This document shows positions 16,943 through 42,454 of a stretch of 42,454 bases of DNA, piece after piece. The first letter of the stretch is position 1. Each line of letters opens with the position of its first letter. The position numbers and the translations under genes were made by a program. The DNA is from Pirellulales bacterium. GTDB taxonomy: Bacteria > Planctomycetota > Planctomycetia > Pirellulales > Thermoguttaceae. The notes under the pieces were generated by a model, which saw only the letters and a program-made list of their open reading frames with translations, was not told where the DNA came from and made no database searches. The stretch spans positions 1 through 42,454 of the forward strand of contig JAFGTN010000578.1 of NCBI GenBank assembly GCA_016934075.1, given 5' to 3'.

Positions 16943-18067
16943 TCAACTGGCATCCGCTTTTTCCACAATCTCCTTAGCAATCCGTTTCGCGGCGTGTCCG
17001 TCCCACAACTCGGGGCATTTGCCCGTTTTGTAGATACCTTCCAAAACAGCCTGCAAACCATTTCGAAGCAAATTGGCATCATTACCCACCAGCGTGCTGG
17101 TACCTTCAGTAACGGTAATGGGGCGTTCGGTGTTGGGGCGCGCGGTTAGGCAAGGGATGCCCAAAACAGTCGACTCTTCCTGCAATCCACCCGAGTCGGT
17201 CACCGTAACTTTCGATTGCGAAGAAAGCGCCAAAAAGTCAAGATAACCGGCCGGGCCAAGTTGTAAAAGCCCTTTGGCGGATTCGAGTTTCTTGGCGAAT
17301 CCAAAACGTTCGATCCGCTGCTTTGTTCGAGGATGAATGGGAAAAACCAGCGGAAGGCTTTTCGACGTCTCGATCAACACGTCTAGGAGCGGACCCAACG
17401 ATTCGGCCGTGTCTACATTGGCCGGACGATGCAGCGTTACAAGCCCATAAGACCCGGGGGTAAGCCCGTAACGCGCCAGGGTATCGCGAGACTGTGCCTG
17501 AGGGAGTAGTTGTTTTAGTGTATCGATCATCACATTGCCTACCAGCACCATCTCGTCTTCGCTGTGTCCCTCGTTGCGAAGATTGTCCATTCCGGCCGGA
17601 TCGGAAACCAGCAGCAGGTCGGCGATTGCATCGGTGAGGATGCGGTTGATTTCCTCGGGCATGGTGCGATCGAAGCTTCGCAATCCAGCTTCGACATGCG
17701 CGACGGGGATCCCCAACTTGACGGCTGCAATTGTCGTGGCCATGGTCGAGTTCACATCGCCAACAACCAGAACGCGATCGAAAGGCCGGCCATCATCCGT
17801 GGCGTTTTCGAGTACTTCCTCGAAACGTTCGATCACACGAGCCGTTTGTTGGCCGTGCTTGCCCGAGCCGACTTCCAAGGTAATATCCGGCCGGCGCATA
17901 TCGAGTTCTTCGAAGAATACATCGGAGAGGTTCTTGTCGTAGTGTTGTCCAGTGTGGACGAGAACGGTTTCCACGCCCTGATGTGCCTCGAAAGCCTTCA
18001 AGATGGGAGCCATTTTCATGAAATTCGGTCGGGCACCAACGACACATGCCAGTCGTAATTTCGTCAC
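16943..18067 (-). CDS. wecB: UDP-N-acetylglucosamine 2-epimerase, non-hydrolysing family (WecB/WbpI/FnlC-like)
   Basis: GTG start at 18065-18067, 7 nt after AGGAG and 1 nt after the upstream gene's TAA. Motifs VVGARPNFMKMAPI, HTGQHYD, VGDVNST and HVEAGLRS are typical of Epimerase_2 enzymes. Confidence 0.85.
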   Translation of the reverse strand: MTKLRLACVVGARPNFMKMAPILKAFEAHQGVETVLVHTGQHYDKNLSDVFFEELDMRRPDITLEVGSGKHGQQTARVIERFEEVLENATDDGRPFDRVLVVGDVNSTMATTIAAVKLGIPVAHVEAGLRSFDRTMPEEINRILTDAIADLLLVSDPAGMDNLRNEGHSEDEMVLVGNVMIDTLKQLLPQAQSRDTLARYGLTPGSYGLVTLHRPANVDTAESLGPLLDVLIETSKSLPLVFPIHPRTKQRIERFGFAKKLESAKGLLQLGPAGYLDFLALSSQSKVTVTDSGGLQEESTVLGIPCLTARPNTERPITVTEGTSTLVGNDANLLRNGLQAVLEGIYKTGKCPELWDGHAAKRIAKEIVEKADAS

Positions 18068-24206: not shown

Positions 24207-24208
24207 GT

Positions 24209-24829: not shown

Positions 24830-25953
24830 CTCTTACCTCCTCTTTCAAGGCCTAAGAATCTCATCGCCTTAGAACCCAGCCAATAAATACTCTCTTGCGA
24901 CTTGTAGTCCTTATATGTTTTGTTTGGAGCATCCATATATCCCTGCAATTCTTCGACAGAGATCCCAAGCTTGGTAGCCACATATTCGAATTCGTGATGT
25001 ATCGTTTCCTCATCATAAGCCGGACGTGAGAGTTTTTCTAAAGCCTCTTCGCGAGTCATCTGATTTGTCAGAATAAGACTTGAGAATTGTACTTTTCTCG
25101 TGTCGTAATTAAATTTCTTGGGAAGCCAATATGATTCGTAAAATCTTGTGAAGCGGGATTCAAAATGTTTTTGAGGATATCTTTGCCATCCAAAGCGGTC
25201 AACCAGCAATTGCATGGCTTCTTCTTTGTGATAAGGAACATAGTCCAACGGTTTTACAACGGTGATTCCCTTCACATACCTCAGGTACACCTTATGCCAA
25301 AGAATGCTGGTTATGGGAAAATTTATCAATGGTCGCTGACCAAACTTTTTGTGTATATCTTTAAGCTGAATAGAATCTGATTGAAAATACATCCATTCTT
25401 TTGGATTTCTTACGCATTCTGTGGAATAGTTCGCACCCGTGAGAATGTATTTAATCTTGTATTTGTTCGCAAAATTGTACATCGTGGCAAAAAATGCATG
25501 ATCCTGAGGTACATCAATGTGCGGGACGCCTGACTTGAAATAAGCCAGTTGGAGGTCCTTCATTTCTTCCCAGTCAATTACGTCGGTATACAAATCCAAA
25601 CCAAGGCCATCGATCAGTTTCTCGATGTTATTCACTGCGATTTGAGAATTCCAGCCGGCATCAACATGAAAAACCAACGGCCGCAAACCAAATTCTTCTT
25701 TTGCCACATACATCAAATAGGAGCTGTCAATGCCTCCACTCACTCCCATGATGCAGTCGAAGTCTTTGCCCTCACCTTCTTTTTTGATTTTCTGCACAAT
25801 TTTCTCAAGCTTCTGTCGCCCTCTTTCATCAGTATGCCAATTCGGCAAGATGTCTTTGTAGAAGCTATTGCAGTGATCGCAAACGCCGTTTTTATCAAAC
25901 ACTATCATGGAATCCGTGGTATCCATGACGCAGTTTGTGCAAATTTGAAACAT
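24826..25953 (-). CDS. N-acetyl sugar amidotransferase (WbuX/WbpG family, PP-loop ATP pyrophosphatase with N-terminal Zn-ribbon)
   Basis: The track start at 25981-25983 is GTG. ATG at 25951-25953 sits 6 nt after GGAGG and was chosen. Motifs: CTNCVMDTT...CDHCNSF (CxxC...CxxC) and GVSGGIDSSY (SGGxDS PP-loop). Confidence 0.85.
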   Translation of the reverse strand: MFQICTNCVMDTTDSMIVFDKNGVCDHCNSFYKDILPNWHTDERGRQKLEKIVQKIKKEGEGKDFDCIMGVSGGIDSSYLMYVAKEEFGLRPLVFHVDAGWNSQIAVNNIEKLIDGLGLDLYTDVIDWEEMKDLQLAYFKSGVPHIDVPQDHAFFATMYNFANKYKIKYILTGANYSTECVRNPKEWMYFQSDSIQLKDIHKKFGQRPLINFPITSILWHKVYLRYVKGITVVKPLDYVPYHKEEAMQLLVDRFGWQRYPQKHFESRFTRFYESYWLPKKFNYDTRKVQFSSLILTNQMTREEALEKLSRPAYDEETIHHEFEYVATKLGISVEELQGYMDAPNKTYKDYKSQESIYWLGSKAMRFLGLERGGKR

Positions 25954-26011
25954 GCAATTCCTCCGTACTGTGATTATGCTCACAGTGTCAACAAGGAACC
26001 TTTGTATTGGT

Positions 26012-29247: not shown

Positions 29248-30156
29248 TTATGGGCTCCCATTATCTTCAACACACACGGATTTTTGCAGTGCCGATGCCA
29301 AAACCCGCGGGTCATAATCTCCGCACGGAGCCTTTGGCAGTTCTGGTATTCTCCCGGTGGTTTTCATTTCAATTGCTTTTAGTTCACGCATGCGCCGGGC
29401 GGTTATTTGCAAACGCACCCATGTCAAACCACTCTTTCCATCTCGCCATGCGCCACGTACAAATACTTCATAGAACCATTGTATTTGATAACGAAAAGGA
29501 AGGCGGAAAAACAACTTTATTAAAAACATATGACGTTCGAGCGGCGTACCGAATAATTTTGGCTCCGCAGACATCTTCTGCCCTTTCATCTTTTGTATCG
29601 CCAGCATAGTCGTATATCGATTCTGCTTGTCCCACCAGTGATGTAAATCCGGGCTGCCATGATGTTCAATGAAGCTGCGTAGCCGCCCTGTCGTTCCATC
29701 CACAATGAGGTGCTCGTTGACGGTAACATCTGAAATACGAGCTTTGTTCTTTCGCCATAGCCGCACCACGCAGATTTTGGGATGCATGGGCTTGCCCATG
29801 AACCAAAGTCGCACCGGGACGACAAAAGCATCTTCCTTGGTGTCGGTCGCGAAAACCGAGCGTATTTCGTCTTTCAACTCGTTGCTGATTCTCTCGTCGG
29901 CGTCCAACTTCAGTACCCATGGCGTTTTGATCGGTAGTTTTTGCAAGGCGAAGTTCCACTGGTCGCCGAAATTCGTGAAGTGGCGCTGCACGATACCCAC
30001 ACCATTTTCCAGGGCGATATCCACCGTCCGATCAGTACTGCAGCTGTCAACGATAAAAATCTCTTCCGCCCAATCCTTCACGCTTTCAATAGCGCCGGGA
30101 AGGTTGAACTCTTCGTTGAGCGTGAGCATTATGACCGTAAGGGGTAGTTTTTCCAT
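29248..30156 (-). CDS. Glycosyltransferase family 2 (paralogue A, 302 aa)
   Basis: ATG at 30154-30156. The GT-A N-terminus is LTVIMLTLNEEFNLPGAIESV...VDSCSTDRT, with LDADE as the DxD-type motif. Confidence 0.85.
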   Translation of the reverse strand: MEKLPLTVIMLTLNEEFNLPGAIESVKDWAEEIFIVDSCSTDRTVDIALENGVGIVQRHFTNFGDQWNFALQKLPIKTPWVLKLDADERISNELKDEIRSVFATDTKEDAFVVPVRLWFMGKPMHPKICVVRLWRKNKARISDVTVNEHLIVDGTTGRLRSFIEHHGSPDLHHWWDKQNRYTTMLAIQKMKGQKMSAEPKLFGTPLERHMFLIKLFFRLPFRYQIQWFYEVFVRGAWRDGKSGLTWVRLQITARRMRELKAIEMKTTGRIPELPKAPCGDYDPRVLASALQKSVCVEDNGSP

Positions 30157-30182: not shown

Positions 30183-31091
30183 TCAGTCGGATAAACGGTT
30201 ATCAGAGAATACTAACTTCTGTAAGTCGGACGCCAGTATTCTTGGGTCATAATCTCCGTGGGGCGCCTTTGGCTCTTCCGGTATACGCCCGGTGGTTTTT
30301 ATTTCCTTGACTTTTAGTTCTATCATTCGCAGTTTTACTATTTCCCCTCTTGCACAAGTCAGCCCCCTAAAACCGTCGCGCCATGCGCCGCGCACAAATA
30401 TCTCGTATATCCATTGCAGTTGATAACGGAACGGCACACTAAAAAAGATCTTCTTCAGATACATGCGACGCTCTAAAGGCGATCCGAAAAACTTCGGGGT
30501 GGTAGCCATGGCATCTCCTCGAACACGCATTATCGCTTCCATCGTTGTATAGCGATTCTGCTTTTCACACCAATGATGTAAATCCGGGCTGTCGTGGTGT
30601 TCGATATGGCATTGAAGACGTCCGGTGATTCCATCCACGATGAGATGTTCGTTGACAATAACATCAGAAAAGCGGGATTTGTTTTTTCGCCATAGTCGTA
30701 CAACATAAACCTTCGTGTGTATGGGCTTGCCCATAAACCAATTACGGACCGGGATAACAAACGCGGCTTCCTCCGGATCGGTTGACAGAACCTCGCATAT
30801 TTCTTCTTTCAACTCGTTGTTGACTCTCTCGTCAGCATCTAATTTCATCATCCACTCTGTTTTGATCGGCAGGTTATCAATTGCCCAGTTCCATTGATCG
30901 CTATAATTCGTGAAAGGACGCTGCACGATCCCAACCCCGTGCTCAAGAGCGATATCAACTGTACGGTCCGTACTGCAACTATCAACAACAAATACTTCTT
31001 CCGCCCATCCTTTTACGCTTTCAATAGCCCCGGGGAGGTTGAATTCCTCGTTGAGCGTGAGAATAATCACCGTGATTGGTAGTTTGGCCAT
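30183..31091 (-). CDS. Glycosyltransferase family 2 (paralogue B, 302 aa)
   Basis: ATG at 31089-31091. ITVIILTLNEEFNLPGAIESV...VDSCSTDRT and LDADE are present. It aligns without gaps to the neighbouring GT2. Confidence 0.85.
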   Translation of the reverse strand: MAKLPITVIILTLNEEFNLPGAIESVKGWAEEVFVVDSCSTDRTVDIALEHGVGIVQRPFTNYSDQWNWAIDNLPIKTEWMMKLDADERVNNELKEEICEVLSTDPEEAAFVIPVRNWFMGKPIHTKVYVVRLWRKNKSRFSDVIVNEHLIVDGITGRLQCHIEHHDSPDLHHWCEKQNRYTTMEAIMRVRGDAMATTPKFFGSPLERRMYLKKIFFSVPFRYQLQWIYEIFVRGAWRDGFRGLTCARGEIVKLRMIELKVKEIKTTGRIPEEPKAPHGDYDPRILASDLQKLVFSDNRLSD

Positions 31092-31129: not shown

Positions 31130-31780
31130 TTACAGGGCTACTTCCAGAACTTGCCGCACAGCCTGATCCATGGCCCCGCAATTATCGATAGTGTGCACGG
31201 GGCCAAACGTACACAAATCCTCATATAGCTTGAATCTGATTTCAAAATCCCGGCTGATCCTGTTTTCTTCACGGCAGGCCAACACTTCGCCGCGCTCTCG
31301 CATAATTACAAAGGCTTTTGCACTTGTGGGAACCATTCCCCAAAACATTTTCCATACAAAGTCTTTTCCAAGTTGCTTCTTTCCCGTATCAACAGCAATA
31401 TCAACGAGAATATCTGGAACCCAGCGATCACAAATCACAATCCGTCTTAATATATAAGCCGGAAAATGAACCTTCAGCAGGGATGCCAATAACGTATCGA
31501 TATAAGTAGCCGCAATAAACAGGACCGATATCAACCGCGAGCGCGAAAACTCATGGTAGGAGGCAACGCGGCGGCCATCTTGTATATCGTATCCATAGAA
31601 TCCCAGAAGCTTTGCCAAAGCAAACACCACTCTGGTCGAGTAATGATTATACCTTAGCCAGGGAGTGTATATACGACCTCCCCGCTGCTGGAGATTTTTT
31701 TTCAACTCATTGATGATCGTGCTTTTACCACTACCATCAATTCCGCTGATTATGAAAATGTGAGATTTGATTTTAGACAC
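31130..31780 (-). CDS. P-loop kinase of the thymidylate-kinase (dTMP kinase-like) fold, substrate unknown
   Basis: The P-loop ISGIDGSGKST (nt ~31715-31750) and a DRW motif (ICDRWVPD) are spaced as in Tmk. The track start at 31820-31822 is TTG and overlaps the upstream GT by 50 nt. GTG at 31778-31780 (VSKIKSHIFIISG...) gives a normal P-loop offset and was chosen. The start is uncertain. Confidence 0.6.
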   Translation of the reverse strand: MSKIKSHIFIISGIDGSGKSTIINELKKNLQQRGGRIYTPWLRYNHYSTRVVFALAKLLGFYGYDIQDGRRVASYHEFSRSRLISVLFIAATYIDTLLASLLKVHFPAYILRRIVICDRWVPDILVDIAVDTGKKQLGKDFVWKMFWGMVPTSAKAFVIMRERGEVLACREENRISRDFEIRFKLYEDLCTFGPVHTIDNCGAMDQAVRQVLEVAL

Positions 31781-32984
31781 TTTTGCATACCGATTCGCCA
31801 AAATCGATCCAGGAGTTGGCAACCGATTCCCAGGTAGGGTGGCTGCCCATTATTGCCAGACAAGCTTCCACTTTTTCTCTGCGTGTTTCATCGTCGAGCG
31901 CGGCGGAAATAATGGCTTCGGATAGGGGCGCCACCTTTCCGGGAGGAATGATCCAGCCGCCTTTGCTTATATATTCGGATGTGCCGCCTGATTGGGTTGT
32001 GATGACCGGGGTGCCCAATTGCATCGCCTCCAAAATACCCAAAGGTATCTCCGTGGGAATATAGAGAAAAGGCATAACTACTGCCCGAGCCCGCTTGATG
32101 CTCGCTTGGATTTCCCGGGAAGACAGATTTTTGGTGACGCAAATAAAACGTTCGCGCATATTCAAATCATCGATACTACGTAGAACGTTTTGCCGGGCAA
32201 TTTCCATCTCTCTTCCAGGATCGGGCCGCAACAAACATACAATTTTCAGGTTCTTGCATCGTTCAAATACTTTCGGAGCGGCGGACAGCAATACATTTAT
32301 TCCGCGAACCGGAAGGGGATTGCCAAGAAATAAAACGTAATCCTGATCTCCATTCGCAAAATCAAGTTCATCGTGACACTGTGTCTGACCGTCAGGTTCT
32401 TCTTTGGCGGGCATACCTGGGAGGACGGCAATGCTGCGCCGACTTGGCCAACCGGCATTCACAAAGTCTTGCCGTGTAAACTCGGTCATGCACAACACTC
32501 CGCTTACTCTTCTTTTTTTCAGTTTCCGGACAAGTAACCTTTTGGGCAGGAACGCCTCGACCATAAGATTCTTCAGTCGGGTTAACGGCATATACCGCAT
32601 TGCGGCCAGAACTTGTGGAAGACGATGGCAACCTCCGTCTTGATAAACTACCGTGGGACAATCCCAACCGTGCCAGTGGGAATAGGGTTTTAGGGCATCT
32701 CGCCAGGCAACCGGCCAATAAACCAGATCGGGATAGAAATCATCCGCTCCAGGTCGGCAAACTCGGATGTTTTGATAAAACCACACGGGCACATCATACT
32801 CTTGGCTTACGCAGGGATGATCTATATTGCGGTTTATTGAAATTAGCCGGGCATCATATCCACGTCGTCGCATTCCGGCCACCACTTCACACACCGTCCT
32901 CCAAGGCAACAAACGTTTCCGTTTGGGCAATAAGTCGTATGTTACAATGGCAATTTGCGTTTTCAACTGGGCTACTCCGAGCAT
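31773..32984 (-). CDS. Glycosyltransferase, GT-B fold (GT4/GT1-like)
   Basis: The C-terminal region TEIPLGILEAMQLGTPVITTQSGGTSEYI is the GT4 E-x7-E region. The track start at 33027-33029 is GTG, with ATGs at 33015-33017 and 32982-32984. The last one (MLGVAQLKTQIAIVTYD) was chosen because GT-B proteins start near the first beta-strand. The start is uncertain. Confidence 0.75.
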   Translation of the reverse strand: MLGVAQLKTQIAIVTYDLLPKRKRLLPWRTVCEVVAGMRRRGYDARLISINRNIDHPCVSQEYDVPVWFYQNIRVCRPGADDFYPDLVYWPVAWRDALKPYSHWHGWDCPTVVYQDGGCHRLPQVLAAMRYMPLTRLKNLMVEAFLPKRLLVRKLKKRRVSGVLCMTEFTRQDFVNAGWPSRRSIAVLPGMPAKEEPDGQTQCHDELDFANGDQDYVLFLGNPLPVRGINVLLSAAPKVFERCKNLKIVCLLRPDPGREMEIARQNVLRSIDDLNMRERFICVTKNLSSREIQASIKRARAVVMPFLYIPTEIPLGILEAMQLGTPVITTQSGGTSEYISKGGWIIPPGKVAPLSEAIISAALDDETRREKVEACLAIMGSHPTWESVANSWIDFGESVCKSV

Positions 32985-34263: not shown

Positions 34264-35031
34264 TTACTTGCGATCGCCGTCTTTCGCGGCGCGAGATTGT
34301 GCTTCCTGTTCAGTTCTGCTCTTCAGCACAATAGTTGGATCCGCAATTACCTCATCGAGACTCATACCTGCCTCGGGCACGGTAACGTCTCCCCGCATAA
34401 AGATGACAACCGGCTTTTCATCCTCTCTCATTTGCCGTCGAATAAATTCCATGCTATCCACGACAAGCAGGTCGGTCGGCAGGTTCATAAAGACCGAAAG
34501 CCATTTCAAACGCATGGAAATACACAACGCACTCAAAGCCGGCCAGAATCCCTTGCGCCTTATCACTCGAATGTCGATGTCGCTTCGCAGACGGAACATC
34601 CTCCGGCAGAAACTTCCATATATCAGTACGCAATCCGTGGCATTCGACGCCAGATAAGCATCTCGTACGATTTTTAAGTATTCCACCGTTTTCTCCACAC
34701 CCGCATTTTTCATAAAGCCAAGACTATCGTGCAGATATGTGTGCAGAAAACCGTCCACAATGAACATAATCGTATGTGCGACGAGAAATGAGATAAATAT
34801 ACCCCACAATGTGATCTGATAATCGTAAAACACACACACAATCAACGCCAGAGACATTACAAATACAATGCCCTCAAGCACAAAATGAAACAGTATTTCA
34901 GTCTTGTCGCGAGATTGCAACGAATGAGTAATCCATCCGACAATCATATTTCTCACTAAAACAAAACGGCCCCATTTATTTTGCGCAATCTTTGTTACAC
35001 TCTGCACCAGATTCATGTTTTGCTGATTCAT
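34264..35031 (-). CDS. Membrane-tethered minimal nucleotidyltransferase-fold (Pol-beta superfamily) protein
   Basis: The track start at 35041-35043 is TTG; the first ATG is at 35029-35031. Two predicted TM helices: ILFHFVLEGIVFVMSLALIVCVF and ITLWGIFISFLVAHTIMFIVDGF. These are followed by YGSFCRRMFRLRSDIDIRV (nt 34564..34620; DxD codons 34573..34581), the G-S-x(n)-D-x-D nucleotidyltransferase signature. Confidence 0.6.
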   Translation of the reverse strand: MNQQNMNLVQSVTKIAQNKWGRFVLVRNMIVGWITHSLQSRDKTEILFHFVLEGIVFVMSLALIVCVFYDYQITLWGIFISFLVAHTIMFIVDGFLHTYLHDSLGFMKNAGVEKTVEYLKIVRDAYLASNATDCVLIYGSFCRRMFRLRSDIDIRVIRRKGFWPALSALCISMRLKWLSVFMNLPTDLLVVDSMEFIRRQMREDEKPVVIFMRGDVTVPEAGMSLDEVIADPTIVLKSRTEQEAQSRAAKDGDRK

Positions 35032-35092
35032 TACAAACACCAATTTTTTCTAGAAATTAACAATACTATGCCACGCTATAAAAAAAGAATCT

Positions 35093-36091
35093 TCACTGAA
35101 CTATAGTTTTTATCTCGGTTGGTCCTATTTGTTGTTTAATCTCCATAAAAATACCAAACAAAATAAGTGGCGGAGAAAGATAATTGTGCAACAACCACTG
35201 GTTTAACTTCTGGCGTTTTACGACCACCGAGTAAAGGAAATCACATATAAGACATGCCAGCAACAACTGGCCGACATTAGCATAAGTAAAGGAAGTCAGC
35301 AGGGCCATAACCAGTCCACACAACAATACAATACACAGAAGCAAAAAGGTCGCGAGTCCTCGGTCCGACCTTATCAGCATGAACATAGCACTGGGAATGT
35401 CAATGTTTTTACGTATCAAACGACCACGGAGAAGAGGATATCCCTTTCGGAAATGCTCCCATGAGCGATCGTGGAATTCCTGTGTATGATGTACACCGAC
35501 GAATTGTGGTAACTGTATCAACGTTCCATGCCTTGATATTCTCAATGTGTAATCAAAATCTTGTAACCGCACAAAACTATGATCCCATGTGCCGGCCTTA
35601 TCCACAATCTTCCTAGTGGCAATGAATATTCCACCCGTTATCAGGCATTTCTTTTCTTCAGTCATCTCCTTTCGCCTGACCACCCGCCTAATCTCATCCT
35701 TATAATCTGAGCTGTATTGTATCTCCCGCAGTTTTCCCGTCACCGCGTCGGCCCTGCCCGATTGTATTCTGTCCAAAGCTTCGGATATGAAATCCGGGTA
35801 AAGTTCGACATCGCCGTCAACGAAAAAGATGTATTTTTTTGTGGCGAATCTCATTCCCGCATTTCTTGCAACTGCCGCGTTTACAAAACCAGAGCACTGA
35901 ACGACCCGCAGATTTGCAATCCTGTCGACATAGCTTTTCATGACTTCCAGGGTGTCGTCTGTGGAACCGGAATCCACACAGATTACCTCGCAGTTATCCA
36001 GCGTCATCGCCGCTACGGAATCGAGGCACTTGCCGATGACAGGCGACTCGTTACGTGCAATGATAATGAAAGACATGTTGCTAAATATCAT
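35093..36091 (-). CDS. Glycosyltransferase family 2 with C-terminal transmembrane segments
   Basis: The ATG at 36089-36091 overlaps the upstream stop as ATGA. Motifs: FIIIARNESPVIGKCLDSV, VICVDSGSTDDT, FFVDGDVEL (DxD). C-terminal hydrophobic helices include LATFLLLCIVLLCGLVMALL. Confidence 0.85.
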   Translation of the reverse strand: MIFSNMSFIIIARNESPVIGKCLDSVAAMTLDNCEVICVDSGSTDDTLEVMKSYVDRIANLRVVQCSGFVNAAVARNAGMRFATKKYIFFVDGDVELYPDFISEALDRIQSGRADAVTGKLREIQYSSDYKDEIRRVVRRKEMTEEKKCLITGGIFIATRKIVDKAGTWDHSFVRLQDFDYTLRISRHGTLIQLPQFVGVHHTQEFHDRSWEHFRKGYPLLRGRLIRKNIDIPSAMFMLIRSDRGLATFLLLCIVLLCGLVMALLTSFTYANVGQLLLACLICDFLYSVVVKRQKLNQWLLHNYLSPPLILFGIFMEIKQQIGPTEIKTIVQ

Positions 36092-37449
36092 GTTCCTCTC
36101 GCAATTGCACGGCCGGGAAATCGGTTTTGTTTTTGGACGAACGAGTGGTTGCGTCGCATCTCCTCACGCATTCGCCAAGTCATGAACAGCATTATTCCTA
36201 CCCACAGGGCAAACGAAGGCTTCCAGTAAATCTGCAGTAGGGCTACAATGGTAAAACATAGGTAGAGGCGTATAGCCATGGCAATCGGCTGATATTGCCT
36301 GGGGCCGTGGCGACACACGGCCCGCAAGTCACGAAACATAAAATAGAGAATGATGACAGTCAAAATGATTCCCTGGAAGCCATACTGATACAAAACGGCA
36401 ATGAGCCCATGGTCACTTGGGTTGTAAGGAATGTCCTCTGAACGGTCAGCACCTAAACTGAACTTGCCTGGGCCGATGCCGATAAAACCACCGTCTGCAA
36501 ACTCGTTCATGTAGTATTTGATACCCTCAATTCGCCCGCCGACGGTGCCTTTATTGCTTTGGTAATCCTCGATGCTCGAACTGAAGATGTTGACAACGGA
36601 CTCGAAGACCGCGTCCCCGACGTTCGTGAAAACCAAAGACGCCGTCAAGAGAAAAAATGCCATGATAAGAGTCATGGCCTTGCGGCCGATTTTCAAGTGA
36701 AAAAGCCAGTAAAAGATTGCAACTATCATTAGTCCTATGATGTATCGCCTCGTCATGTCAACAAAGAGGAAATACCACAGGTAGAAAACGAAGAGTGCGA
36801 AAAATATTGCCCGGATCTTAGTGCTCCGTGCGCCGCTTGTACACATAACCAGGCAGTAAAGAAACGAATATACTACCATTGCTCCCAGCGGAGACGTGAG
36901 CCGTTCAGCTTCGAAACGAGACGACACTAGTATGAACATACTAGAAGCAAGACCGGGAATAAACGATACGATAACATATAACAACACGATCACACTGTTA
37001 ATGCCAACGACAACTGCATTCAGATTGGGCACAAAGGCAGAATCAGTTCGGCATGAAATCAAGACGAGACATATAAGCAAAGCGGCATAGTTAAATCCCT
37101 GGCGGGGCAGTTCCAACATGCTATGACCACGGATCACAACGCTATTGATGAAAATTGAAAAAAAAGCAATTGCAATTATTCCCAAGACGGCCAAAGAATA
37201 AAACTTCTTTAAGACACCCTTCATAAGAATCGAAGGCGTGCGAATAACAAATGCAGCAGCAACCAGAAACACCATGGCGATCATGAACACCTCGAAGTGT
37301 TCACTCAAGGTCAACGCTTTCAAATAAAAGCCTCTGCTCCGAAGGAGTATCGCCAGACCGACAAAGAGCAACAATAGTTTGTTGCGTGTTACCGGCGGTA
37401 TTGTCAAATTCTGTGTGATCGTCTGCATTGTCTCGATATGCTCCAGCAC
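36088..37449 (-). CDS. Wzy-like O-antigen polymerase / O-antigen-ligase-family integral membrane protein
   Basis: About 10 or more hydrophobic helices, plus a large loop with GGRIEGIKYY...GIGPGKF...PSDHGLIAVLYQYGFQG, resembling the Wzy_C signature. The track start at 37447-37449 is GTG; an alternative ATG is at 37426-37428. Confidence 0.7.
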   Translation of the reverse strand: MLEHIETMQTITQNLTIPPVTRNKLLLLFVGLAILLRSRGFYLKALTLSEHFEVFMIAMVFLVAAAFVIRTPSILMKGVLKKFYSLAVLGIIAIAFFSIFINSVVIRGHSMLELPRQGFNYAALLICLVLISCRTDSAFVPNLNAVVVGINSVIVLLYVIVSFIPGLASSMFILVSSRFEAERLTSPLGAMVVYSFLYCLVMCTSGARSTKIRAIFFALFVFYLWYFLFVDMTRRYIIGLMIVAIFYWLFHLKIGRKAMTLIMAFFLLTASLVFTNVGDAVFESVVNIFSSSIEDYQSNKGTVGGRIEGIKYYMNEFADGGFIGIGPGKFSLGADRSEDIPYNPSDHGLIAVLYQYGFQGIILTVIILYFMFRDLRAVCRHGPRQYQPIAMAIRLYLCFTIVALLQIYWKPSFALWVGIMLFMTWRMREEMRRNHSFVQKQNRFPGRAIARGT

Positions 37450-37558: not shown

Positions 37559-38818
37559 TCAGCTCACCAAACCAAGCACCTGATAGATCTCTTTTTTAAT
37601 CCGTTCCGTGCTTCTACCCGCAAAAGGGTTCATTTCGTTTGCTAATTTCTTGAGTTTATCCATTGGATAATTGGTCTTCGCATCAAGCAGCGCTTTTCGC
37701 AGGTTTCGCATGTCGTCCAGCACCGGTGCGAATTGATAAAGCTGCCAAGTAATAGAACCTTTCCATATATACTCAGGGTTCACCGGAACACAAATGATTG
37801 GTTTTTGAAGTAATATTGCATAATCGGCCAAACATGTGTGGTCTGTCAATACAATGTCACAGGCAACCATATGCGGAATAAAGTCTTCATCCGGCTCACG
37901 AATTATGTAACCGTGCTCCCTTTGAGTGCGGAGGTATTCGCCCCATACGCGCTGGCCTGGATATTTCGCCACATATTCATTGGGATGAACACTAATTGTG
38001 AATTGAAATTCTTCTAAGAGCTTGCGTGACTCCTCTAGAAATGCATCCCCCACTGATTCAATCAGGCATTCAGGTCTCCAAGTGCTTAATACAAACACAC
38101 TAGTCTCATTTGGCCCGATCCCCAATTGGCGACGAAATTCTTCTCGGTGATTAGCTTCTGAAAGTACGTTATCGTAGAACATGTCTCCCACGACAGTAAT
38201 GACATTATTTAATGATGGGATGGTCTCTACGATCAAATCACGCACTTTTTCATCTTCCTCAAACATTCGGGAATAGATGGGCTGATCTTTTTTGTAAAGG
38301 TTGAAGATAGACCGCTTCTTGAAGGCCGACTGATCGTATGTAATAGTTGTCCTAGCTCCCGGGAGACATTTATTCTGAGGGCCGTGACCTATGTAGATAG
38401 TTGGACAATTTCGTGGATCCAACAGTAATTTGTATTCCGCATGGCCCGCTCCAACGATCATATCCCATTCACAGAGATAGGCGCGCAGGCTAGACACCTC
38501 TGGAAAAGGTAAAAGCTTTTTTATTATTGCATACACATTAGGAGCCTTCTTGCGGGATGCCTTAATCATGATTTTAAATCGTGCACGATGATCATCGCTG
38601 AATATTTCCGAAAATAGCTTAAGATGTTGAGCCTCCTGAGCGGAACCGCAATGCAAGAGGATATTCCATCGATCCGAAGATCTAAATCGGAAAGTGAGTG
38701 ACCGTGTAATCCAACAGAACACTTTCGCCAACGATGAGTTAAGAAACTGTCTCTTCCAGAATTCCAACCTCAATATACGGCCTATTCTCTTCTTATTATC
38801 ACTCTTGCGTGTGCTCAT
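37559..38818 (-). CDS. TagB/TagF-family (CDP-glycerol glycerophosphotransferase-like) phosphotransferase/polymerase
   Basis: ATG at 38816-38818, 6 nt after AGGAAG. Motifs line up with the Glyphos_transf family: VFVLSTWRPE (cf. YAPTWR), ISVHPNEY (catalytic-His region), VLTDHTCLADYAILLQKPII (cf. ITDYSS..FD...L.KP.I), NPFAGRSTERI. Confidence 0.6.
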   Translation of the reverse strand: MSTRKSDNKKRIGRILRLEFWKRQFLNSSLAKVFCWITRSLTFRFRSSDRWNILLHCGSAQEAQHLKLFSEIFSDDHRARFKIMIKASRKKAPNVYAIIKKLLPFPEVSSLRAYLCEWDMIVGAGHAEYKLLLDPRNCPTIYIGHGPQNKCLPGARTTITYDQSAFKKRSIFNLYKKDQPIYSRMFEEDEKVRDLIVETIPSLNNVITVVGDMFYDNVLSEANHREEFRRQLGIGPNETSVFVLSTWRPECLIESVGDAFLEESRKLLEEFQFTISVHPNEYVAKYPGQRVWGEYLRTQREHGYIIREPDEDFIPHMVACDIVLTDHTCLADYAILLQKPIICVPVNPEYIWKGSITWQLYQFAPVLDDMRNLRKALLDAKTNYPMDKLKKLANEMNPFAGRSTERIKKEIYQVLGLVS

Positions 38819-38832
38819 CTCTTCTTCCTGGG

Positions 38833-38846
38833 TACACGTACGTGTA
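38833..38846. promoter_or_regulatory. Perfect 14-bp palindrome TACACGTACGTGTA immediately upstream of the TagF-like gene's RBS
   Basis: Read directly; the reverse complement is identical. On the coding (minus) strand the order is palindrome - CCC - AGGAAGAAGAG - ATG (38818). It sits in one of the few 100-bp gaps inside the locus. Confidence 0.3.
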
Positions 38847-38921
38847 GAAATGCAAAATATTGGTTTTTTTTAAAGATGGAATTCTGATAACTTCGTTATT
38901 ATTTTGTTTTTTTATTCACAT

Positions 38922-40172
38922 TTATCCTAACAAGAGCAAACCCGCTCTATAAAAATAGCCGTACTTCTGGACCGGAAATTTTATCTCGACGCCGCATTTT
39001 TTCGCTGTTTCAACAACGTCGATACCAACCGCCTCAAGAGGACGGCGAGAAAGATGCGGGAATCTGCATTTCTCCTCATCACAACCATTCGGACACAATT
39101 TGCACGACCCGCCTATAAATGATGTGGCATAGTAATATCCAAGCATACCTGCCTTTTTCTCAAGATCGAGCAATACCCTGTGGAGCGTATTAGTTGAAGA
39201 TTGCCGCACCGAATTATATTCATCTTCTGTATTAAATGTAGATTTGAGAAAAACCATTAGTCCCCTGTTATACGGGCTCAAAAGTGCATGGACATCAAAA
39301 TCATCCGGAAATGGTGGGCATGTCCATGTCTTACCATACTTTGGGCATTCGCTACATTTCAGGAGTACCCTTGAATCAAAGACAAGATCCTGCATAGAGA
39401 TAACTTTTGTCTCAAAGTTAGGTAATGAAAGAACAAAATCGCTTAGTTCATGTATGTTACTAAAAAGCCTGTTGGCTTTTTCAAATTCCTCCAGTTTGTC
39501 TATTTCAATCCAGTTGTACCCTTTTATATTCATTCTGTGAATCTTGTGGTCGTTAATTATCATCTGTATTGCATCTTCGTAATACAAATCGGTTTTGCCG
39601 TCGTTTATTAACGAATCAACTGTGCCAAAATATTGCGATACAAACGCTCCGCTGAATTTATTGACGCCTATGGATTCACCATATTGCGCCTCCGAATTAA
39701 CTGCTAACTCTTTTCCTATTGCAACTATTTCGTCGTTTACTACCTTGGCCTTCATTTCGTCAGCGCCAAGCTCACTCTCGTGATCTACTACCATTACGCT
39801 CTCAAATTCAGAATGCGCAACGTCCATGTATAACCCTGCTTCACACAGTACATCCCCGTCTATGGATATAAAGCCGTCTTGCAAGTAGTCTTTTGCAAGC
39901 CACAACGAATATATGACGTTTGTTGAGTCATATTTATCGTTTATTAAGTATTTTATTTTCAGACCTTTGTAATTGTCCTTCACTGCGTCGGCTATCATTT
40001 GATGTTTATAGCCAATGAGTATAATTACTTCTTCAAGGTTTAGTGGCAGAAGTTTGTCAAGCATGTGGAATATGAGGGGCTTGTTTTCGATCTCAAAAAG
40101 GACCACGGGTTTTTCATCTATAAGAGGTTTAAGACGATCGTCTTTTCCCGCTGCAAGTATGAGTGCTTTCAT
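38922..40172 (-). CDS. Fusion protein: LicC-like nucleotidyltransferase (N-terminal) + Cys-rich putative metal-binding domain (DUF2284-like, C-terminal)
   Basis: ATG at 40170-40172. The N-terminus is MKALILAAGKDDRLKP...NDKYDSTNVIYSLWLAKDYL...IDGDV (LicC/cytidylyltransferase pattern). The C-terminal domain (nt ~38925-39360) has CSECPKYGKTWTCPP (first Cys codon 39354..39356) and GGSCKLCPNGCDEEKC...RRPLEAVGIDV (nt ~39061-39120). Confidence 0.65.
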   Translation of the reverse strand: MKALILAAGKDDRLKPLIDEKPVVLFEIENKPLIFHMLDKLLPLNLEEVIILIGYKHQMIADAVKDNYKGLKIKYLINDKYDSTNVIYSLWLAKDYLQDGFISIDGDVLCEAGLYMDVAHSEFESVMVVDHESELGADEMKAKVVNDEIVAIGKELAVNSEAQYGESIGVNKFSGAFVSQYFGTVDSLINDGKTDLYYEDAIQMIINDHKIHRMNIKGYNWIEIDKLEEFEKANRLFSNIHELSDFVLSLPNFETKVISMQDLVFDSRVLLKCSECPKYGKTWTCPPFPDDFDVHALLSPYNRGLMVFLKSTFNTEDEYNSVRQSSTNTLHRVLLDLEKKAGMLGYYYATSFIGGSCKLCPNGCDEEKCRFPHLSRRPLEAVGIDVVETAKKCGVEIKFPVQKYGYFYRAGLLLLG

Positions 40173-40203
40173 TGGTAATGCTCTTGTATTCTTAAACCAA
40201 ATG

Positions 40204-41280
40204 CTATTTGACTCTGGACATTACATCTTTTAAAGCATCTATAAACCGAGTCATGTCATCTTCCGCAAGGTTCCCTAGAATTCCAACTCTTAAAAACCTG
40301 TCTCTTAGTGGACCTGGAGCGTTGTGGGAAAGTATTATCCCATGCCTCATTTCTAATAGGTCTACAACCTTGTCGGAGTGAATTCCGGGTGGCAACAAAT
40401 ACAGTATTACGGAATTGGCAGGATTTTCACCAAACGGCTCAAGTCCTAATTTATCAAGGCCATTTCTCAGCTTCTGTGTAAGCCCTGCATACCTTTGAAT
40501 CATGTTTTCTATTCCCTCATGACGTATCTTTTCGAGTCTTGCGTTTAGTTGGAAAAGAAGGCTTATCGCCGGTGTGAAAGGAAATTGGCTCATAGGCACA
40601 AAACGCTGATACTCCTTAAGTTGAAAATAGAATTTTGGAAGGCGTGCTGTTTGCATTCTGTCAAACGCTTTGCTACTAAACGAAAGAAAAGAAAGGCCTG
40701 GAGGAAGGGCAAGCCCTTTCTGCGTGCTTGCAACGGCAATGTCAATTCCCCATGCATCGGTCAATAATGGTTCGACGCAAATACTGCTTATGGCATCAAC
40801 TATTAAAAGGATATTTGTTCCTCTTAAGATATTACCGATTGAGGCTATATCAGTTAAAGTCCCTGTCGATGTTTCATTGACTGTAAGGAACACCGCTTTC
40901 GTATCGTTGCTTAACAATTGGCCGATTTGTTCAGTCTTCAATGCCTGACCTGGTTTCAACATGATTTCATTTACATTAATTCCGTATGATCTGCATATTT
41001 TCCCCCATCTTTCTCCGAACACTCCACCGTTGACAGAAATCACATTGTCTTCCGCATTCAGTGTGTTAACAACAGCGGCTTCCATCGCGCCTGTTCCGGA
41101 GCTCGTCAGGGTAAACACATGATTCTGCGTTTGGAAAACGTATTGTAAGCCATCGGTTATTTCTTCCATCATCCTCGAAAACTTCGGAGACCGGAAATAT
41201 ATCATCTTCTTCGAGGCTAATTGCAGTATGTCCTGCTCGATTTCGGTAGGTCCTACCATCATTAATGTTTGATCTGACAT
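40204..41280 (-). CDS. Class V (AGXT/SerC/PhnW-type) PLP-dependent aminotransferase
   Basis: ATG at 41278-41280. Motifs: MVGPTE, SSGTGAMEAA, VDAISS, STQKGLALPPGLSFLSFSSKA with the putative PLP Lys codon at 40717..40719. The pattern is closest to serine-pyruvate/alanine-glyoxylate-type enzymes. Confidence 0.75.
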   Translation of the reverse strand: MSDQTLMMVGPTEIEQDILQLASKKMIYFRSPKFSRMMEEITDGLQYVFQTQNHVFTLTSSGTGAMEAAVVNTLNAEDNVISVNGGVFGERWGKICRSYGINVNEIMLKPGQALKTEQIGQLLSNDTKAVFLTVNETSTGTLTDIASIGNILRGTNILLIVDAISSICVEPLLTDAWGIDIAVASTQKGLALPPGLSFLSFSSKAFDRMQTARLPKFYFQLKEYQRFVPMSQFPFTPAISLLFQLNARLEKIRHEGIENMIQRYAGLTQKLRNGLDKLGLEPFGENPANSVILYLLPPGIHSDKVVDLLEMRHGIILSHNAPGPLRDRFLRVGILGNLAEDDMTRFIDALKDVMSRVK

Positions 41281-41340
41281 CTATTTCCCTAATATTAAAA
41301 AGTGGTCGTCAAGTGTTCAAATTCAATTTGTCAGCAGATT

Positions 41341-42042
41341 TCAAAAAGGTCTGAAATTGTTCCTGGCTTCTTCAAGCTCGTCTATATTGTCCACCTCGAA
41401 CCACGACTTGCCCTTAACATCCGTGAAGCCGATCTTTTCACCTTCTCTTGCAAGAGCCGCAAATACATTCTCAAACCACTCTCCAGTACGCTTCTGATCG
41501 ATAAACTCTTCGAGTTTCTGTAATACCTTTGCGGAAGCAGCTTTTCTTATCATTATTATGCCGGCATATTCGCCAAATATTGTTTCCGGAGTCAGGTCCA
41601 TACTCATGTCAGTAATGCATCCGTTTCTTACCGATGTTTTGTATCCCTTTTCCAGTTTCCAGTCTGTGTTCAAAGCTACACAAATGTCAGAATTGCAGTT
41701 GCGCATACTGCGTATGACGGATGGCTCACATATAACGTCACTATTGATGATCAAGCAATCTGAATCCAGGTGCTCCTTTGCCAAAAATAAAGATACAATG
41801 CTATTTGTTGAAAGATAATCCCAATTGAGTACATAAGTCACTCCCCCACCTAGTCTGCTCCTTATCTTCTCGGCAAGATATCCTACAACAACTACAATAT
41901 CCTTTATGCCGCACTTTGTGAAAGCTGATATCTGGTGCTCAATAACGGCCTTACCTGCAATGTCAATAAGACATTTGGGGATAGTGTCAGTTAACGGCCG
42001 CATTCTGCTTCCAACACCAGCGGCCATTATAATTGCTTTCAT
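41341..42042 (-). CDS. LicC-like nucleotidyltransferase (phospho-alcohol/phosphonate cytidylyltransferase family)
   Basis: The track start ATG is at 42046-42048. A second ATG at 42040-42042 (MKAIIMAAGVGSRMRPLT) has AAGGA 8 nt upstream and was chosen. The G-x-G-x-R-(L/M) NTP-binding loop is present. NWDYLSTNSIVSLFLAKEHL...INSDV parallels the LicC motif N-x-x-Y-x-x-x-N-x-x-x-S-L. Confidence 0.7.
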   Translation of the reverse strand: MKAIIMAAGVGSRMRPLTDTIPKCLIDIAGKAVIEHQISAFTKCGIKDIVVVVGYLAEKIRSRLGGGVTYVLNWDYLSTNSIVSLFLAKEHLDSDCLIINSDVICEPSVIRSMRNCNSDICVALNTDWKLEKGYKTSVRNGCITDMSMDLTPETIFGEYAGIIMIRKAASAKVLQKLEEFIDQKRTGEWFENVFAALAREGEKIGFTDVKGKSWFEVDNIDELEEARNNFRPF

Positions 42043-42133
42043 AACCATATTCCTTTGTGAGTTTCACGACAACTTCCGAGAGACACCTAGCAACAAACGT
42101 TATCATCTCCTTCCATAAGTTTCCCTGCCATTG

Positions 42134-42454
42134 TCAAAGGCCATTGTTTTGCTTTTTGACTTCTTGTCTTTTCGGAATCAAAAAAGATGCGAAGCCATAT
42201 ATTCGCCTCAACTCTCTTACCCCCCCGGGCATCGCAATCCAAACCAAAATAAATACACCGACGCCAACGAGGAAAGAAAATAATACTTGAAGAAAAACGC
42301 TTTGCGATACGATCAAAAAAGAAGAACAGGATAACACAGCGCCCATAACGATACTTGCTACCATTGGCCGCCAGACACTTATAAAAAACGTGCCTATGGT
42401 CACAGGCGTGTATCTAAAGCAATACCACAAAGATGGGGCCAATTCGAGATTCCA
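42134..42454 (-). CDS. 3' end of a multi-pass membrane protein, probably the Wzx-type (MOP family) flippase; gene continues beyond the window
   Basis: The track 'M' at 42440-42442 is TTG, and the frame stays open to nt 42454 (…W N L E L A P S L W…). There are three hydrophobic helices followed by a short basic tail, as at the C-terminus of polysaccharide flippases. Confidence 0.45.
   Translation of the reverse strand, partial: WNLELAPSLWYCFRYTPVTIGTFFISVWRPMVASIVMGAVLSCSSFLIVSQSVFLQVLFSFLVGVGVFILVWIAMPGGVRELRRIYGFASFLIPKRQEVKKQNNGL

Follow-up and report, generated by a model that had tools for sequence, protein, structure and literature searches.

The subject of this analysis is a group of four genes in a 42,454-nt stretch of DNA from a Pirellulales bacterium (assembly GCA_016934075.1, contig JAFGTN010000578.1), which is referred to as the window, with related loci in other genomes labelled L001 and onward. 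The four open reading frames (ORFs) occupy region 37559-42048 of the minus strand, at the coordinates reported in an initial annotation of the window, and form a co-directional, operon-like set with intergenic gaps of 60, 31, and 103 bp. They encode a canonical nucleotidyltransferase (NTase; NT1), a class V aminotransferase (AT), a second NTase-like domain fused to a Cys-rich DUF2284 domain (NT2::DUF2284), and a TagF-like protein. It appears probable that a nucleotide-activated, amine-bearing phospho-head group is transferred by the TagF-like enzyme. The fuller proposal, which we regard as evenly balanced, is that the four genes constitute a module for the synthesis and transfer of a nucleotide-activated, amine-bearing phospho-alcohol on a Wzx/Wzy-type polysaccharide, i.e., an amino analogue of the cytidine diphosphate (CDP)-glycerol route, probably employing CDP-serinol.

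41341..42048, minus strand: NT1, 235 aa, canonical LicC/PntC-type (cytidylyl)transferase
40204..41280, minus strand: AT, 358 aa, class V aminotransferase dependent on pyridoxal 5'-phosphate (PLP), AGXT/SGAT-like
38922..40172, minus strand: NT2::DUF2284, whole gene, 416 aa
39453..40172, minus strand: N-terminal NT2 domain (aa 1-240), divergent LicC-like nucleotidyltransferase fold
38952..39407, minus strand: C-terminal DUF2284 domain (aa 256-407), Cys-rich, predicted metal-binding
37559..38818, minus strand: TagF-like protein, 419 aa, predicted remote TagF/TagB-family GT-B phosphotransferase

Sequence and structural features of the four proteins

NT1 matches the Pfam families NTP_transf_3 (1.1e-13) and NTP_transferase (2e-13), and its top matches among solved structures are LicC (1jyk, 3.7e-20) and PntC-AEPT (6pd1, 1.1e-16). 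It carries the AAGVGSRMRPLT...PK signature and conforms to the N-terminal pattern (A/G)-G-x-G-x-R-[LM]-x-P-x-T ... [PH]-K, as AAGVGSRMRPLTDTIPK; this pattern is kept in 65/65 stand-alone NTases, NT1 included, that are encoded beside DUF2284 or TagF-like genes in the related loci. Orthologues with approximately 41% identity hold the same position in L015, L017, L018, L022, and L024. Since NT1 keeps the catalytic signature and NT2 does not, NT1 is read as the activating enzyme, which is proposed from its sequence to convert cytidine triphosphate (CTP) and a phospho-amino-alcohol to CDP-X, CTP being the presumed nucleotide.

The aminotransferase matches Aminotran_5 (PF00266) at 1.8e-30, with 106.6 bits against a cut-off of 21.5, and the lysine codon singled out in the initial annotation (40717-40719, AAA on the minus strand) encodes K188 of ASTQK(188)GL, the class V PLP-lysine motif. 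The LicC-like and class V calls made there are thus borne out by the 1jyk and PF00266 matches. The best NCBIfam matches of AT all lie far under their cut-offs, including BhcA at 229 bits against 650. The enzyme is not a PhnW, scoring 169.8 bits against 360.8 (PhnW-AepZ, TIGR03301), 89.7 against 400.8 (TIGR02326), and 105.2 against 296 (PRK13479), nor is it a SerC, with 25.1 bits against 443.6 (TIGR01364) and 28 against 253 (PRK05355). Its top PDB matches are 3f0h and the serine-glyoxylate/AGXT enzymes, and PhnW proper is reached only at about 1e-13. Homologues with 45-52% identity occupy the same NT-AT-NT::DUF2284 cassette, and the role proposed for AT is amination of a C3 unit at its C2 carbonyl.

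In the fusion protein, the Pfam family NTP_transferase covers aa 2-114, the top PDB match is LicC (1.6e-15, aligned over aa 1-239), and PntC-AEPT, LicC, and IPCT rank at the top of the Foldseek search with the AlphaFold2 (AF2) model of NT2. These matches agree with the earlier description of a second LicC-like NTase fused to a Cys-rich domain; the Cys-rich part, unrecognised at the time, is DUF2284 (PF10050), detected on aa 256-407 at 2.1e-32 with 112.6 bits against a cut-off of 25. NT2 shares 28% identity with NT1 and departs from the G-x-G-x-R...PK signature (AAGKDDRLKPLIDEKPVV): the window has AAGKDDRL...EKPVVLF, the NT2-type family consensus is AG-x-E-K-K-L...HQCLF, and every fused domain follows AG-x-[ED]-x-[KR]-L ... 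HQ (VV in the window). Seven cysteines are invariant across the 28 fusion proteins, namely C273, C276, C285 (TCPP), C357, C360, C364, and C369. The fusion is rare, with about 27 clusters in the database, and the NT2-type domain is seen only fused to DUF2284 and only alongside an NT1 orthologue and AT. From these sequence features, we read NT2 as a divergent nucleotide- or substrate-binding module serving DUF2284, which probably derives from the NTase gene that neighbours DUF2284.

DUF2284 has no sequence homologue in the PDB, and Foldseek with the full NT2::DUF2284 model returned NTase-domain matches only. A tblastn search of a stand-alone DUF2284 protein against plasmids gave no match, and no functional literature was found for DUF2284, PF10050, or COG5423. 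Two distant relatives of the NTase domain of NT2 are fused to other partners, P0171 (682 aa) to a domain of phosphoenolpyruvate (PEP)-utilising enzymes (PF02896) and P0218 (670 aa) to PEP mutase and CTP_transf_like; because of these fusions, the NTase clade is seen to border phosphonate/PEP chemistry.

For the fourth protein, the TagF-like call of the initial annotation fails in a plain hidden Markov model (HMM) search with the single sequence, for which the PDB sequence search was empty and NCBIfam gave only a marginal WecB match, and it stands at the level of the family HMM, HHalign, and Foldseek. A word-index search of 5.8 billion proteins returned 20 homologues in 20 clusters, which form a small, rare clade; a fused GNAT domain is present in 4/20, and precomputed annotation assigns PF04464 to 3. 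Scanned singly, 14/20 family members match PF04464 at E<=1 (best 2e-7), and 9 match the WecB family. The family profile gives only marginal PDB matches (WecB 0.014, Cps3D 0.045). Profile-profile alignment with HHalign against PF04464-type proteins from related loci yields 95.9% probability (E 5.6e-9, 249 columns) and pairs IGHG with the HG motif, LSTWRPE with APTFRD, HPNE with HP, and VLTDHT with ISDYSS, i.e., the motifs HG, (S/P)TWR, HP, and TD(H/Y)(T/S) align between the two families.

The AF2 model built from the family alignment has a predicted local distance difference test score (pLDDT) of 85 and a predicted template modelling score (pTM) of 0.80. In Foldseek, its top match is TagF (3l7k, 2.9e-12), followed by Cps3D, a TagF-like capsule polymerase, and TarL; sequence identity to TagF/TarL/Cps3D is about 13%. 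Residues H145, G146, H278, P279, D326, and T328 are invariant in the family, as are the W and R of STWR, and by analogy with TagF we take the His of the N-domain HG motif to be catalytic and the C-domain motifs to bind the donor. From the family HMM matches, HHalign, and the predicted structure, we conclude that the fourth protein is a remote TagF-family GT-B phosphotransferase, which is proposed to take the phospho-amino-alcohol from a CDP donor and attach it to a hydroxyl group on a repeat-unit sugar. The gene model at 37559-38818 has a shorter, 336-aa product in an existing gene call (P0002, 80% coverage); the 419-aa ORF with its start at 38818 is supported by homologues of 66-87% identity and by the conserved N-terminal residues C57, L66, D76, R78, and F81.

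The WecB matches bear on a different reading of the locus, in which the NTases would be sugar-1-phosphate nucleotidyltransferases, AT an unrelated housekeeping enzyme, and the fourth protein a glycosyltransferase or 2-epimerase. Many sugar-1-phosphate NTase models are found among the weak NCBIfam matches, and for the fourth protein, WecB-type epimerases score nearly equally in Foldseek and HMM comparisons. However, every NCBIfam match falls far under its cut-off and the best matches are LicC, PntC, and IPCT. Members of the TagF-like family match PF04464, and the TagF motifs line up; the window has a genuine WecB at another site (16943-18067); and LicD and CDP-alcohol phosphatidyltransferase genes, whose products use CDP-alcohols, are found with the cassette. 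We consider this reading highly improbable.

Cassettes and DUF2284 modules in other genomes

The trio NT (~237 aa)-AT5 (~380 aa)-NT::DUF2284 (~415 aa) recurs in L015, L017, L018/L020, L019, L022, L024, and L025. Its neighbouring transferase is TagF-like in L017, L019, and the window, LicD in L024, and CDP-OH_P_transf in L018, L022, and L023. NT1-AT-NT2::DUF2284 is a conserved, rare cassette of uncultured bacteria with glycan- or lipid-type transferases; a phospho-alcohol transferase (TagF-like, LicD-like, or CDP-OH_P_transf) accompanies the module in every case, and genes of a sugar-nucleotide type of pathway in none. L019 is a twin of the window's four genes (84-95% identity), and the cassette of L015 lies beside Wzy_C and PMT_2 genes. 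In L018 (6295-10838, Margulisbacteria GCA_018825025), a methyltransferase and a CDP-alcohol phosphatidyltransferase come after the cassette, and the flanks are otherwise housekeeping genes (EF-P, RecJ, PurD, M16 peptidases) with no phosphonate genes; because of these surroundings, the cassette appears self-sufficient.

In L020, L022 (8162-12086), and L023, the cassette also adjoins a CDP-alcohol phosphatidyltransferase, and a methyltransferase is present in both L018 and L020. The contexts of L018, L020, L022, and L023 suggest that the activated amino alcohol can also become a phospholipid head group, possibly an N-methylated one. A free amine on the head group fits the partners of the relatives, since GNAT is fused or adjacent to TagF-like relatives and a methyltransferase occurs in L018/L020.

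The wider distribution of DUF2284 was explored by a metagenome scan with the fusion alignment, in which 80 relatives of 273 were kept. Neighbours were counted with locally built HMMs in the 31 loci in which DUF2284 has 3 kb or more of sequence on either side; near-duplicates occur among them, and collapsing these leaves roughly 10 SDR-type and 8 AT-type loci (SDR, short-chain dehydrogenase/reductase).

LicC-like or TagD-like NTase adjoining DUF2284: 30/31 loci
Any phospho-alcohol transferase near DUF2284: 28/31
TagF-like transferase near DUF2284: 14/31
LicD-like transferase near DUF2284: 14/31
CDP-OH_P_transf near DUF2284: 1/31
SDR only near DUF2284: 15/31
Class V aminotransferase only near DUF2284: 10/31
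Both SDR and AT near DUF2284: 0/31
Neither SDR nor AT near DUF2284: 6/31

The transferase partners in these loci, together with the GNAT- and methyltransferase-bearing relatives, uphold the overall logic first suggested for the window, i.e., LicC-type activation, a class V aminotransferase, and TagF-family transfer of an amine-bearing phospho-substituent. LicD is used in the sister modules of L024, L050, L054, and L060, and CDP-OH_P_transf in those of L018 and L022. SDR and AT are mutually exclusive in 25/25 informative loci, and the neighbour-joining tree of DUF2284 domains places the aminotransferase association in at least three separate clades. Because this alternation is both exclusive and recurrent, the reductase and the transaminase most plausibly process the same carbonyl, to an alcohol in one case and to an amine in the other, which constitutes the strongest functional clue of the analysis.

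The sole locus with both an SDR and a class V AT beside DUF2284 is L016 (5250-9895), which also carries a TagD-like CTP_transf, AP_endonuc_2 (xylose-isomerase-like TIM), CDP-OH_P_transf, and GNAT, and may be a hybrid or two-step variant. SDR oxidation followed by transamination of CDP-glycerol was considered and rejected, as it needs SDR and AT together (0/31 well-flanked loci; L016 only). A further module, LicD - SDR - DUF2284 - LicC-like NTase, is found in the cultured human-gut Negativicute Phascolarctobacterium faecium (L067, 8398-11254), where it lies between a LIC12162-family transferase / pseudaminic acid synthase and rmlB; near-identical copies are present in L066, L069-L071, and L084, and related copies in L078, L080, and L090.

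The initial annotation took the two NTases as a hint of two donors. In such a scheme, each would activate a different head group, and the TagF-like enzyme or a second transferase would use both, possibly polymerising a teichoic-acid-like chain. NT2 could be active, as it keeps the acidic metal-/substrate-binding motifs IDGD, YED, and W-EID, and in L017 the cassette sits between two PF04464 genes, with an ABC-2 transporter as in teichoic-acid export. However, NT2 is without the G-x-G-x-R and P/H-K signature kept by all 65 stand-alone NTases and occurs only as a DUF2284 fusion with an NT1 orthologue and AT, whereas stand-alone DUF2284 modules have, and work with, a single NTase. Furthermore, the window, L018, L019, and L024 have one transferase each, and the window combines Wzy-like and flippase-like genes with a minimal, 419-aa TagF-like enzyme. 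Two donors are therefore improbable, and NT1 alone is retained as the activating enzyme.

A phosphonate route must also be weighed, in which AT would act as a 2-aminoethylphosphonate (AEP) transaminase on phosphonoacetaldehyde, NT1 and/or NT2 would be PntC-type enzymes, and the TagF-like protein would attach AEP, with PEP mutase and phosphonopyruvate decarboxylase encoded elsewhere in the genome. The PntC-AEPT fusion of Treponema denticola (6pd1; CMP-2-aminoethylphosphonate, CMP being cytidine monophosphate) resembles the window in coupling a LicC-like cytidylyltransferase to a class V aminotransferase, and it ranks among the top sequence/structure matches of both NTases. PhnW-AepZ (TIGR03301, 1.1e-49) is the second-best NCBIfam match of AT, and PEP-mutase or PEP-utilising domains are present in P0218 and P0171, the two fusion proteins distantly related to the NTase domain of NT2.

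However, PEP mutase (PepM) and thiamine pyrophosphate (TPP)-dependent decarboxylase domains have no Pfam match in any window gene, in agreement with their absence from the window in the initial annotation, and the EDKx5NS motif has 0 matches in six frames of the window and 98 related loci (1,082,703 bases). Unlike the Treponema system, the window and related loci are thus without PEP mutase or decarboxylase. The gene directly preceding NT1 encodes a membrane protein (42134..42454) and not PepM, the L018 cassette is bracketed by housekeeping genes with no phosphonate genes, and AT is not of the PhnW type, at 170 bits against 361 (TIGR03301) and 90 against 401 (TIGR02326). The SDR interchange of the sister modules is without counterpart in AEP biosynthesis, and we know of no DUF2284 partner or SDR alternative in phosphonate clusters. 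AEP, one of the head groups initially listed as candidates, is on these grounds improbable.

Loci of the TagF-like relatives show a related but distinct set of partners. A LicC-like NTase adjoins the TagF-like gene in 7/11 distinct loci; counted with L019 over 12 related loci outside the window, the neighbour is a LicC-like NTase in 7 and an IspD-like NTase in 2. The order class V AT - NTase - GNAT::TagF-like - GT2 is found in L001/L004 (metagenome-assembled genome (MAG) of Planctomycetes) and L006 (Acidobacteriota MAG), and NTase - GNAT - TagF-like in L005 and L008 (Sedimentisphaerales), with a family 2 glycosyltransferase (GT2) immediately downstream of the TagF-like gene in L001/L004, L005, L006, and L014. 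DUF2284 is present in 0 of these 14 loci (L001-L014, 12 distinct). The TagF-like clade is consistently coupled to a cytidylyltransferase and often also to an amine-forming or amine-acetylating enzyme. In L009 and L011, IspD-like (plus SDR) genes stand beside the TagF-like gene, as in CDP-ribitol pathways; these neighbours and the known aminopentanetetrol lipids prompted the idea of an aminopentanetetrol (C5) head group, which was dropped, as nothing ties the cassette to pentose phosphates. In L007 (5070-9541), the TagF-like gene comes after genes for an NTase::Aminotran_1_2 fusion of 630 aa and for a sulfatase / phosphodiesterase-like protein, an architecture reminiscent of FrbH-type NTase-decarboxylase fusions. 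In L002/L003 (7147-11245) and L014 (8465-11095), the TagF-like relative is preceded by NTase - (303-aa protein in L002) - Asp/Glu-family racemase.

These loci, in which the racemase and a LicC-like NTase adjoin the TagF-like gene and no aminotransferase is present, accord with a phospho-amino-acid head group, for which AT would make O-phosphoserine or a relative from, e.g., 3-phosphohydroxypyruvate, NT1 would form a CDP-amino acid, and the TagF-like enzyme would attach it. AT is closest to the serine/hydroxypyruvate-handling SGAT/AGXT enzymes, and its C-terminal LRVG motif contains a conserved Arg, visible in the sequence, that, by analogy with AGXT, could bind a carboxylate. A parallel to such a scheme would be the phospho-(N-methyl)threonine modification of the flagellin glycan in Clostridioides difficile, for which an NTase and a TagF-like enzyme are employed. 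However, phosphoserine, as a central metabolite, should need no transaminase of its own, SerC models reach no more than 25-28 bits on AT, and the SDR sister modules would yield a phospho-hydroxy acid instead of the glycerol phosphate expected from the gtp analogy described below. A phospho-amino acid is thus an unlikely head group, and the phospho-amino-alcohol is preferred.

The surrounding glycan locus

From about 16.9 kb to the window end, the minus strand is devoted to polysaccharide biosynthesis throughout, as judged from Pfam, and is rich in glycosyltransferases; its G+C content is 40-49%, and that of the first 11 kb of the window 52-58%.

36088..37449, minus strand: multi-pass membrane protein, 453 aa, Wzy-like candidate from its hydrophobic sequence and position
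35093..36091, minus strand: GT2 glycosyltransferase, 332 aa, Glycos_transf_2 1.4e-30
42134..42454, minus strand: C-terminal part of a hydrophobic membrane protein (hydrophobic translation) that runs off the window end upstream of NT1
16943..18067, minus strand: genuine WecB
About 16.9 kb onward, minus strand: other glycan-locus content, comprising GT4 and GT2 enzymes, a heparinase II/III-like protein, and a GFO/ADH oxidoreductase fusion
Within the same locus, minus strand: HisF/HisH-like pair, methyltransferase fusion, PGA_cap

The 453-aa membrane protein, for which Pfam and NCBIfam searches gave no match, is possibly a Wzy-like repeat-unit polymerase; a weak Wzy_C gene holds a comparable position in L002 and L015. 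The fragment at 42134..42454, without a Pfam match, possibly belongs to a Wzx-type flippase, and in L002 a Polysacc_synt flippase precedes the NTase. The 332-aa GT2 is a candidate for adding the sugar that would receive the phospho-substituent, because a GT2 directly follows the TagF-like gene in several related loci. We favour a single side-group addition, as with the pneumococcal WchX, over the polymerisation that was initially entertained, because of the Wzy-like and flippase-like genes, the many glycosyltransferases, the minimal size of the TagF-like protein, and the conserved GT2 neighbour in related loci; in a Wzx/Wzy-type locus of this kind, polymerisation is less likely.

Several other features of the window were observed. 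Two 302-aa GT2 genes at 29248-30156 and 30183-31091 are highly alike and look like a recent tandem duplication. A 230-aa P-loop protein (31130-31822) with weak thymidylate-kinase / APS-kinase-like matches is encoded inside the glycan locus and outside the conserved cassette; it could be a small-molecule kinase feeding a phospho-substituent. Between glycosyltransferase genes, a 259-aa protein (34264-35043) has N-terminal hydrophobic segments and a weak Pol-beta-type nucleotidyltransferase match (6.8e-4). The HisF-like (His_biosynth) and HisH-like (GATase) genes and a following gene for a 385-aa protein without a Pfam match (23427-25983) form a trio that resembles the amidotransferase sets of the WbuZ/WbuY/WbuX type, which serve acetamidino or amino sugars. 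Beyond the glycan locus, the window encodes a clostripain-family (Peptidase_C11) protein of 2003 aa that contains PPC and Big_5 domains (3921-9932), a Ser/Thr protein kinase (9964-11511), and a 1667-aa TPR protein (11536-16539).

A proposed route to an activated amino alcohol

Although the initial annotation could not match this gene combination to a described pathway, a close analogue exists in the pneumococcal CDP-2-glycerol genes gtp1-3 and wchX. Among these glycerol-2-phosphate genes, wchX encodes a glycerol phosphotransferase, gtp1 a 'putative glycerol-2-phosphate dehydrogenase', and gtp2 a nucleotidyl transferase, with gtp3 as the remaining member (PMC1391919, PMC3493582, PMC5581491); gtp3 is annotated as a 'putative phosphotransferase' (PMC3493582). 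This system (serotypes 15, 23, and others) resembles the window in pairing a LicC-like NTase and a TagF-family transferase with an enzyme that processes a carbonyl and with a small third protein, and it adds a single C3 phospho-alcohol side group to the repeat unit of a Wzy-dependent capsule; the window is likened to it by gene content. The widespread SDR-DUF2284-NTase(-TagF/LicD) modules of related loci share the gene content of gtp1/gtp2/gtp3 and wchX. In the account that Wang et al. reportedly gave in 2010, Gtp1 reduces dihydroxyacetone to glycerol, Gtp3 forms glycerol-2-phosphate, and Gtp2 forms CDP-2-glycerol.

In contrast to the pneumococcal system, the window has no SDR (Gtp1) in or beside the module and carries a class V AT instead, so that an amine would be expected rather than a hydroxyl; additionally, it has the second, divergent NTase-like domain fused to DUF2284. 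The exact four-gene set matches no described pathway and is most likely an amino variant of the described glycerol-phosphate-type gene set. Literature searches on serinol phosphate with cytidylyltransferase, on LicC with aminotransferase and CDP-alcohol phosphatidyltransferase, and on serinol in teichoic-type polymers found no described pathway. The 'qim' teichoic-like operon of group A Streptococcus was set aside as a precedent, as the paper contains none of the relevant enzyme terms.

The individual steps have parallels in other systems. TagF, TarL, and Cps3D (PF04464; 3l7k, 8va1, 8qoy) share the GT-B fold and the aligned motifs with the window protein, whereas the latter falls under the Pfam threshold, belongs to a clade that is often GNAT-fused or GNAT-adjacent, and is probably a single-addition enzyme, not a polymerase. 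The LicC/LicD phosphocholine and CDP-alcohol phosphatidyltransferase systems follow the same logic, in which a LicC-type enzyme forms a CDP-alcohol that is then transferred to a glycan or diacylglycerol; however, the window head group would be made de novo by AT and DUF2284, not through a choline kinase, and the transferase is TagF-like. In Campylobacter jejuni, the dihydroxyacetone phosphate (DHAP) transaminase Cj1437 supplies serinol phosphate for capsule decoration (PMC11800397). This is a precedent for the transamination of a C3 ketose phosphate to serinol phosphate, as proposed for the window; unlike in our proposal, C. jejuni joins serinol phosphate to glucuronate through an amide and subsequently removes the phosphate, with no nucleotide activation or phosphodiester.

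In the proposed route, AT would act on a C3 unit, whether dihydroxyacetone, dihydroxyacetone phosphate, or a CDP-bound form, and turn its C2 carbonyl into an amine, giving serinol (2-amino-2-deoxyglycerol) phosphate, and NT1 would combine serinol phosphate with CTP to form CDP-serinol. The contribution of DUF2284, which is tethered to the divergent nucleotide-binding NTase-like domain, would be the one common to all modules of this type: most likely, it would phosphorylate the alcohol, or else form or handle a carbonyl on the activated intermediate. With the CDP compound as donor, the TagF-like GT-B enzyme would then place serinol phosphate on a hydroxyl group of a sugar in the repeat unit and release CMP, and the end product would be a zwitterionic phosphodiester side group on the glycan, with one transfer per repeat unit. 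We infer the C3 backbone by analogy with the CDP-2-glycerol genes, and likewise the order of steps and the role of DUF2284. Provided that the backbone is C3, the prediction of CDP-serinol is independent of step order, because a carbonyl generated on CDP-glycerol would give the same product.

Several observations weigh against this route. The nearest characterised relatives of AT use small 2-oxo acids (glyoxylate, hydroxypyruvate, pyruvate) and not dihydroxyacetone or its phosphate, and Cj1437 is absent among the PDB relatives of AT. NT2 keeps the acidic active-site motifs IDGD, YED, and W-EID and may still be catalytic, in a residual or altered form. The TagF-like protein has no Pfam match even at E<=10, so that PF04464 (Glyphos_transf) is not reached by the single sequence, and WecB-type epimerases are near-equal structural matches to its model. 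Among the TagF-like relatives, L002/L003 and L014 (Clostridia MAG) have an Asp/Glu-type racemase in place of the aminotransferase, and this branch hints at an amino-acid-type head group, D-amino-acid-type or otherwise racemised. L001/L004 and L006 have AT and NTase without DUF2284, which is thus not universally required. That Gtp3 is a DUF2284 protein is our presumption from matching gene content, a lead that we hold to be quite likely. Finally, serinol phosphate, the first-named candidate of the initial annotation, is also our best guess for the specific head group, yet it is argued by analogy and is to be taken as tentative, with the chances somewhat against it.

More speculatively, and with rather less expectation of being right, DUF2284 could be viewed as the signature enzyme of a widespread, essentially unstudied C3 phospho-alcohol donor route, of which the cassette would be the branch leading to an undescribed activated amino alcohol on glycans and lipids. 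DUF2284 may then be a phosphotransferase that depends on a metal or on Fe-S, or an oxidoreductase whose substrates are intermediates bound to the NTase, and the product may be CDP-serinol or, if DUF2284 targets position 2 (cf. glycerol-2-phosphate), an N-phospho-linked (phosphoramidate) isomer. Uncultured Planctomycetota-, Omnitrophota-, and Margulisbacteria-like bacteria may use TagF-like or LicD enzymes to place it on surface glycans, and CDP-alcohol phosphatidyltransferase with N-methyltransferase to place it on membrane lipids; on this view, both the zwitterionic glycan substituent and the phospholipid head group would be new.

Zwitterionic phospho-substituents of bacterial glycans, among them phosphocholine, phosphoethanolamine, and AEP, influence immune recognition, the adsorption of phages, and the charge of the surface, and the logic by which they are made serves to predict glycan chemistry from genome sequences. 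The module described here suggests an undescribed substituent of this kind, an aminated C3 phosphate, in which the reductase of a glycerol-phosphate-type pathway is swapped for a transaminase. If Gtp3 is indeed a DUF2284 protein, the window module would be the amino variant of that pathway, with dihydroxyacetone (phosphate) transaminated, not reduced, to give serinol phosphate and CDP-serinol. DUF2284 itself gains a concrete context as the obligatory companion of cytidylyltransferases of the LicC or TagD type, in modules that supply TagF-like, LicD-like, or CDP-alcohol phosphatidyltransferases, and Phascolarctobacterium faecium is a cultured organism in which such a module could be studied. 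If the proposal is true, annotation could tell 'SDR-type' (hydroxyl) from 'AT-type' (amine) head groups, and a phosphatidyltransferase next to the cassette would be a sign that candidate phyla possess a new lipid head group.

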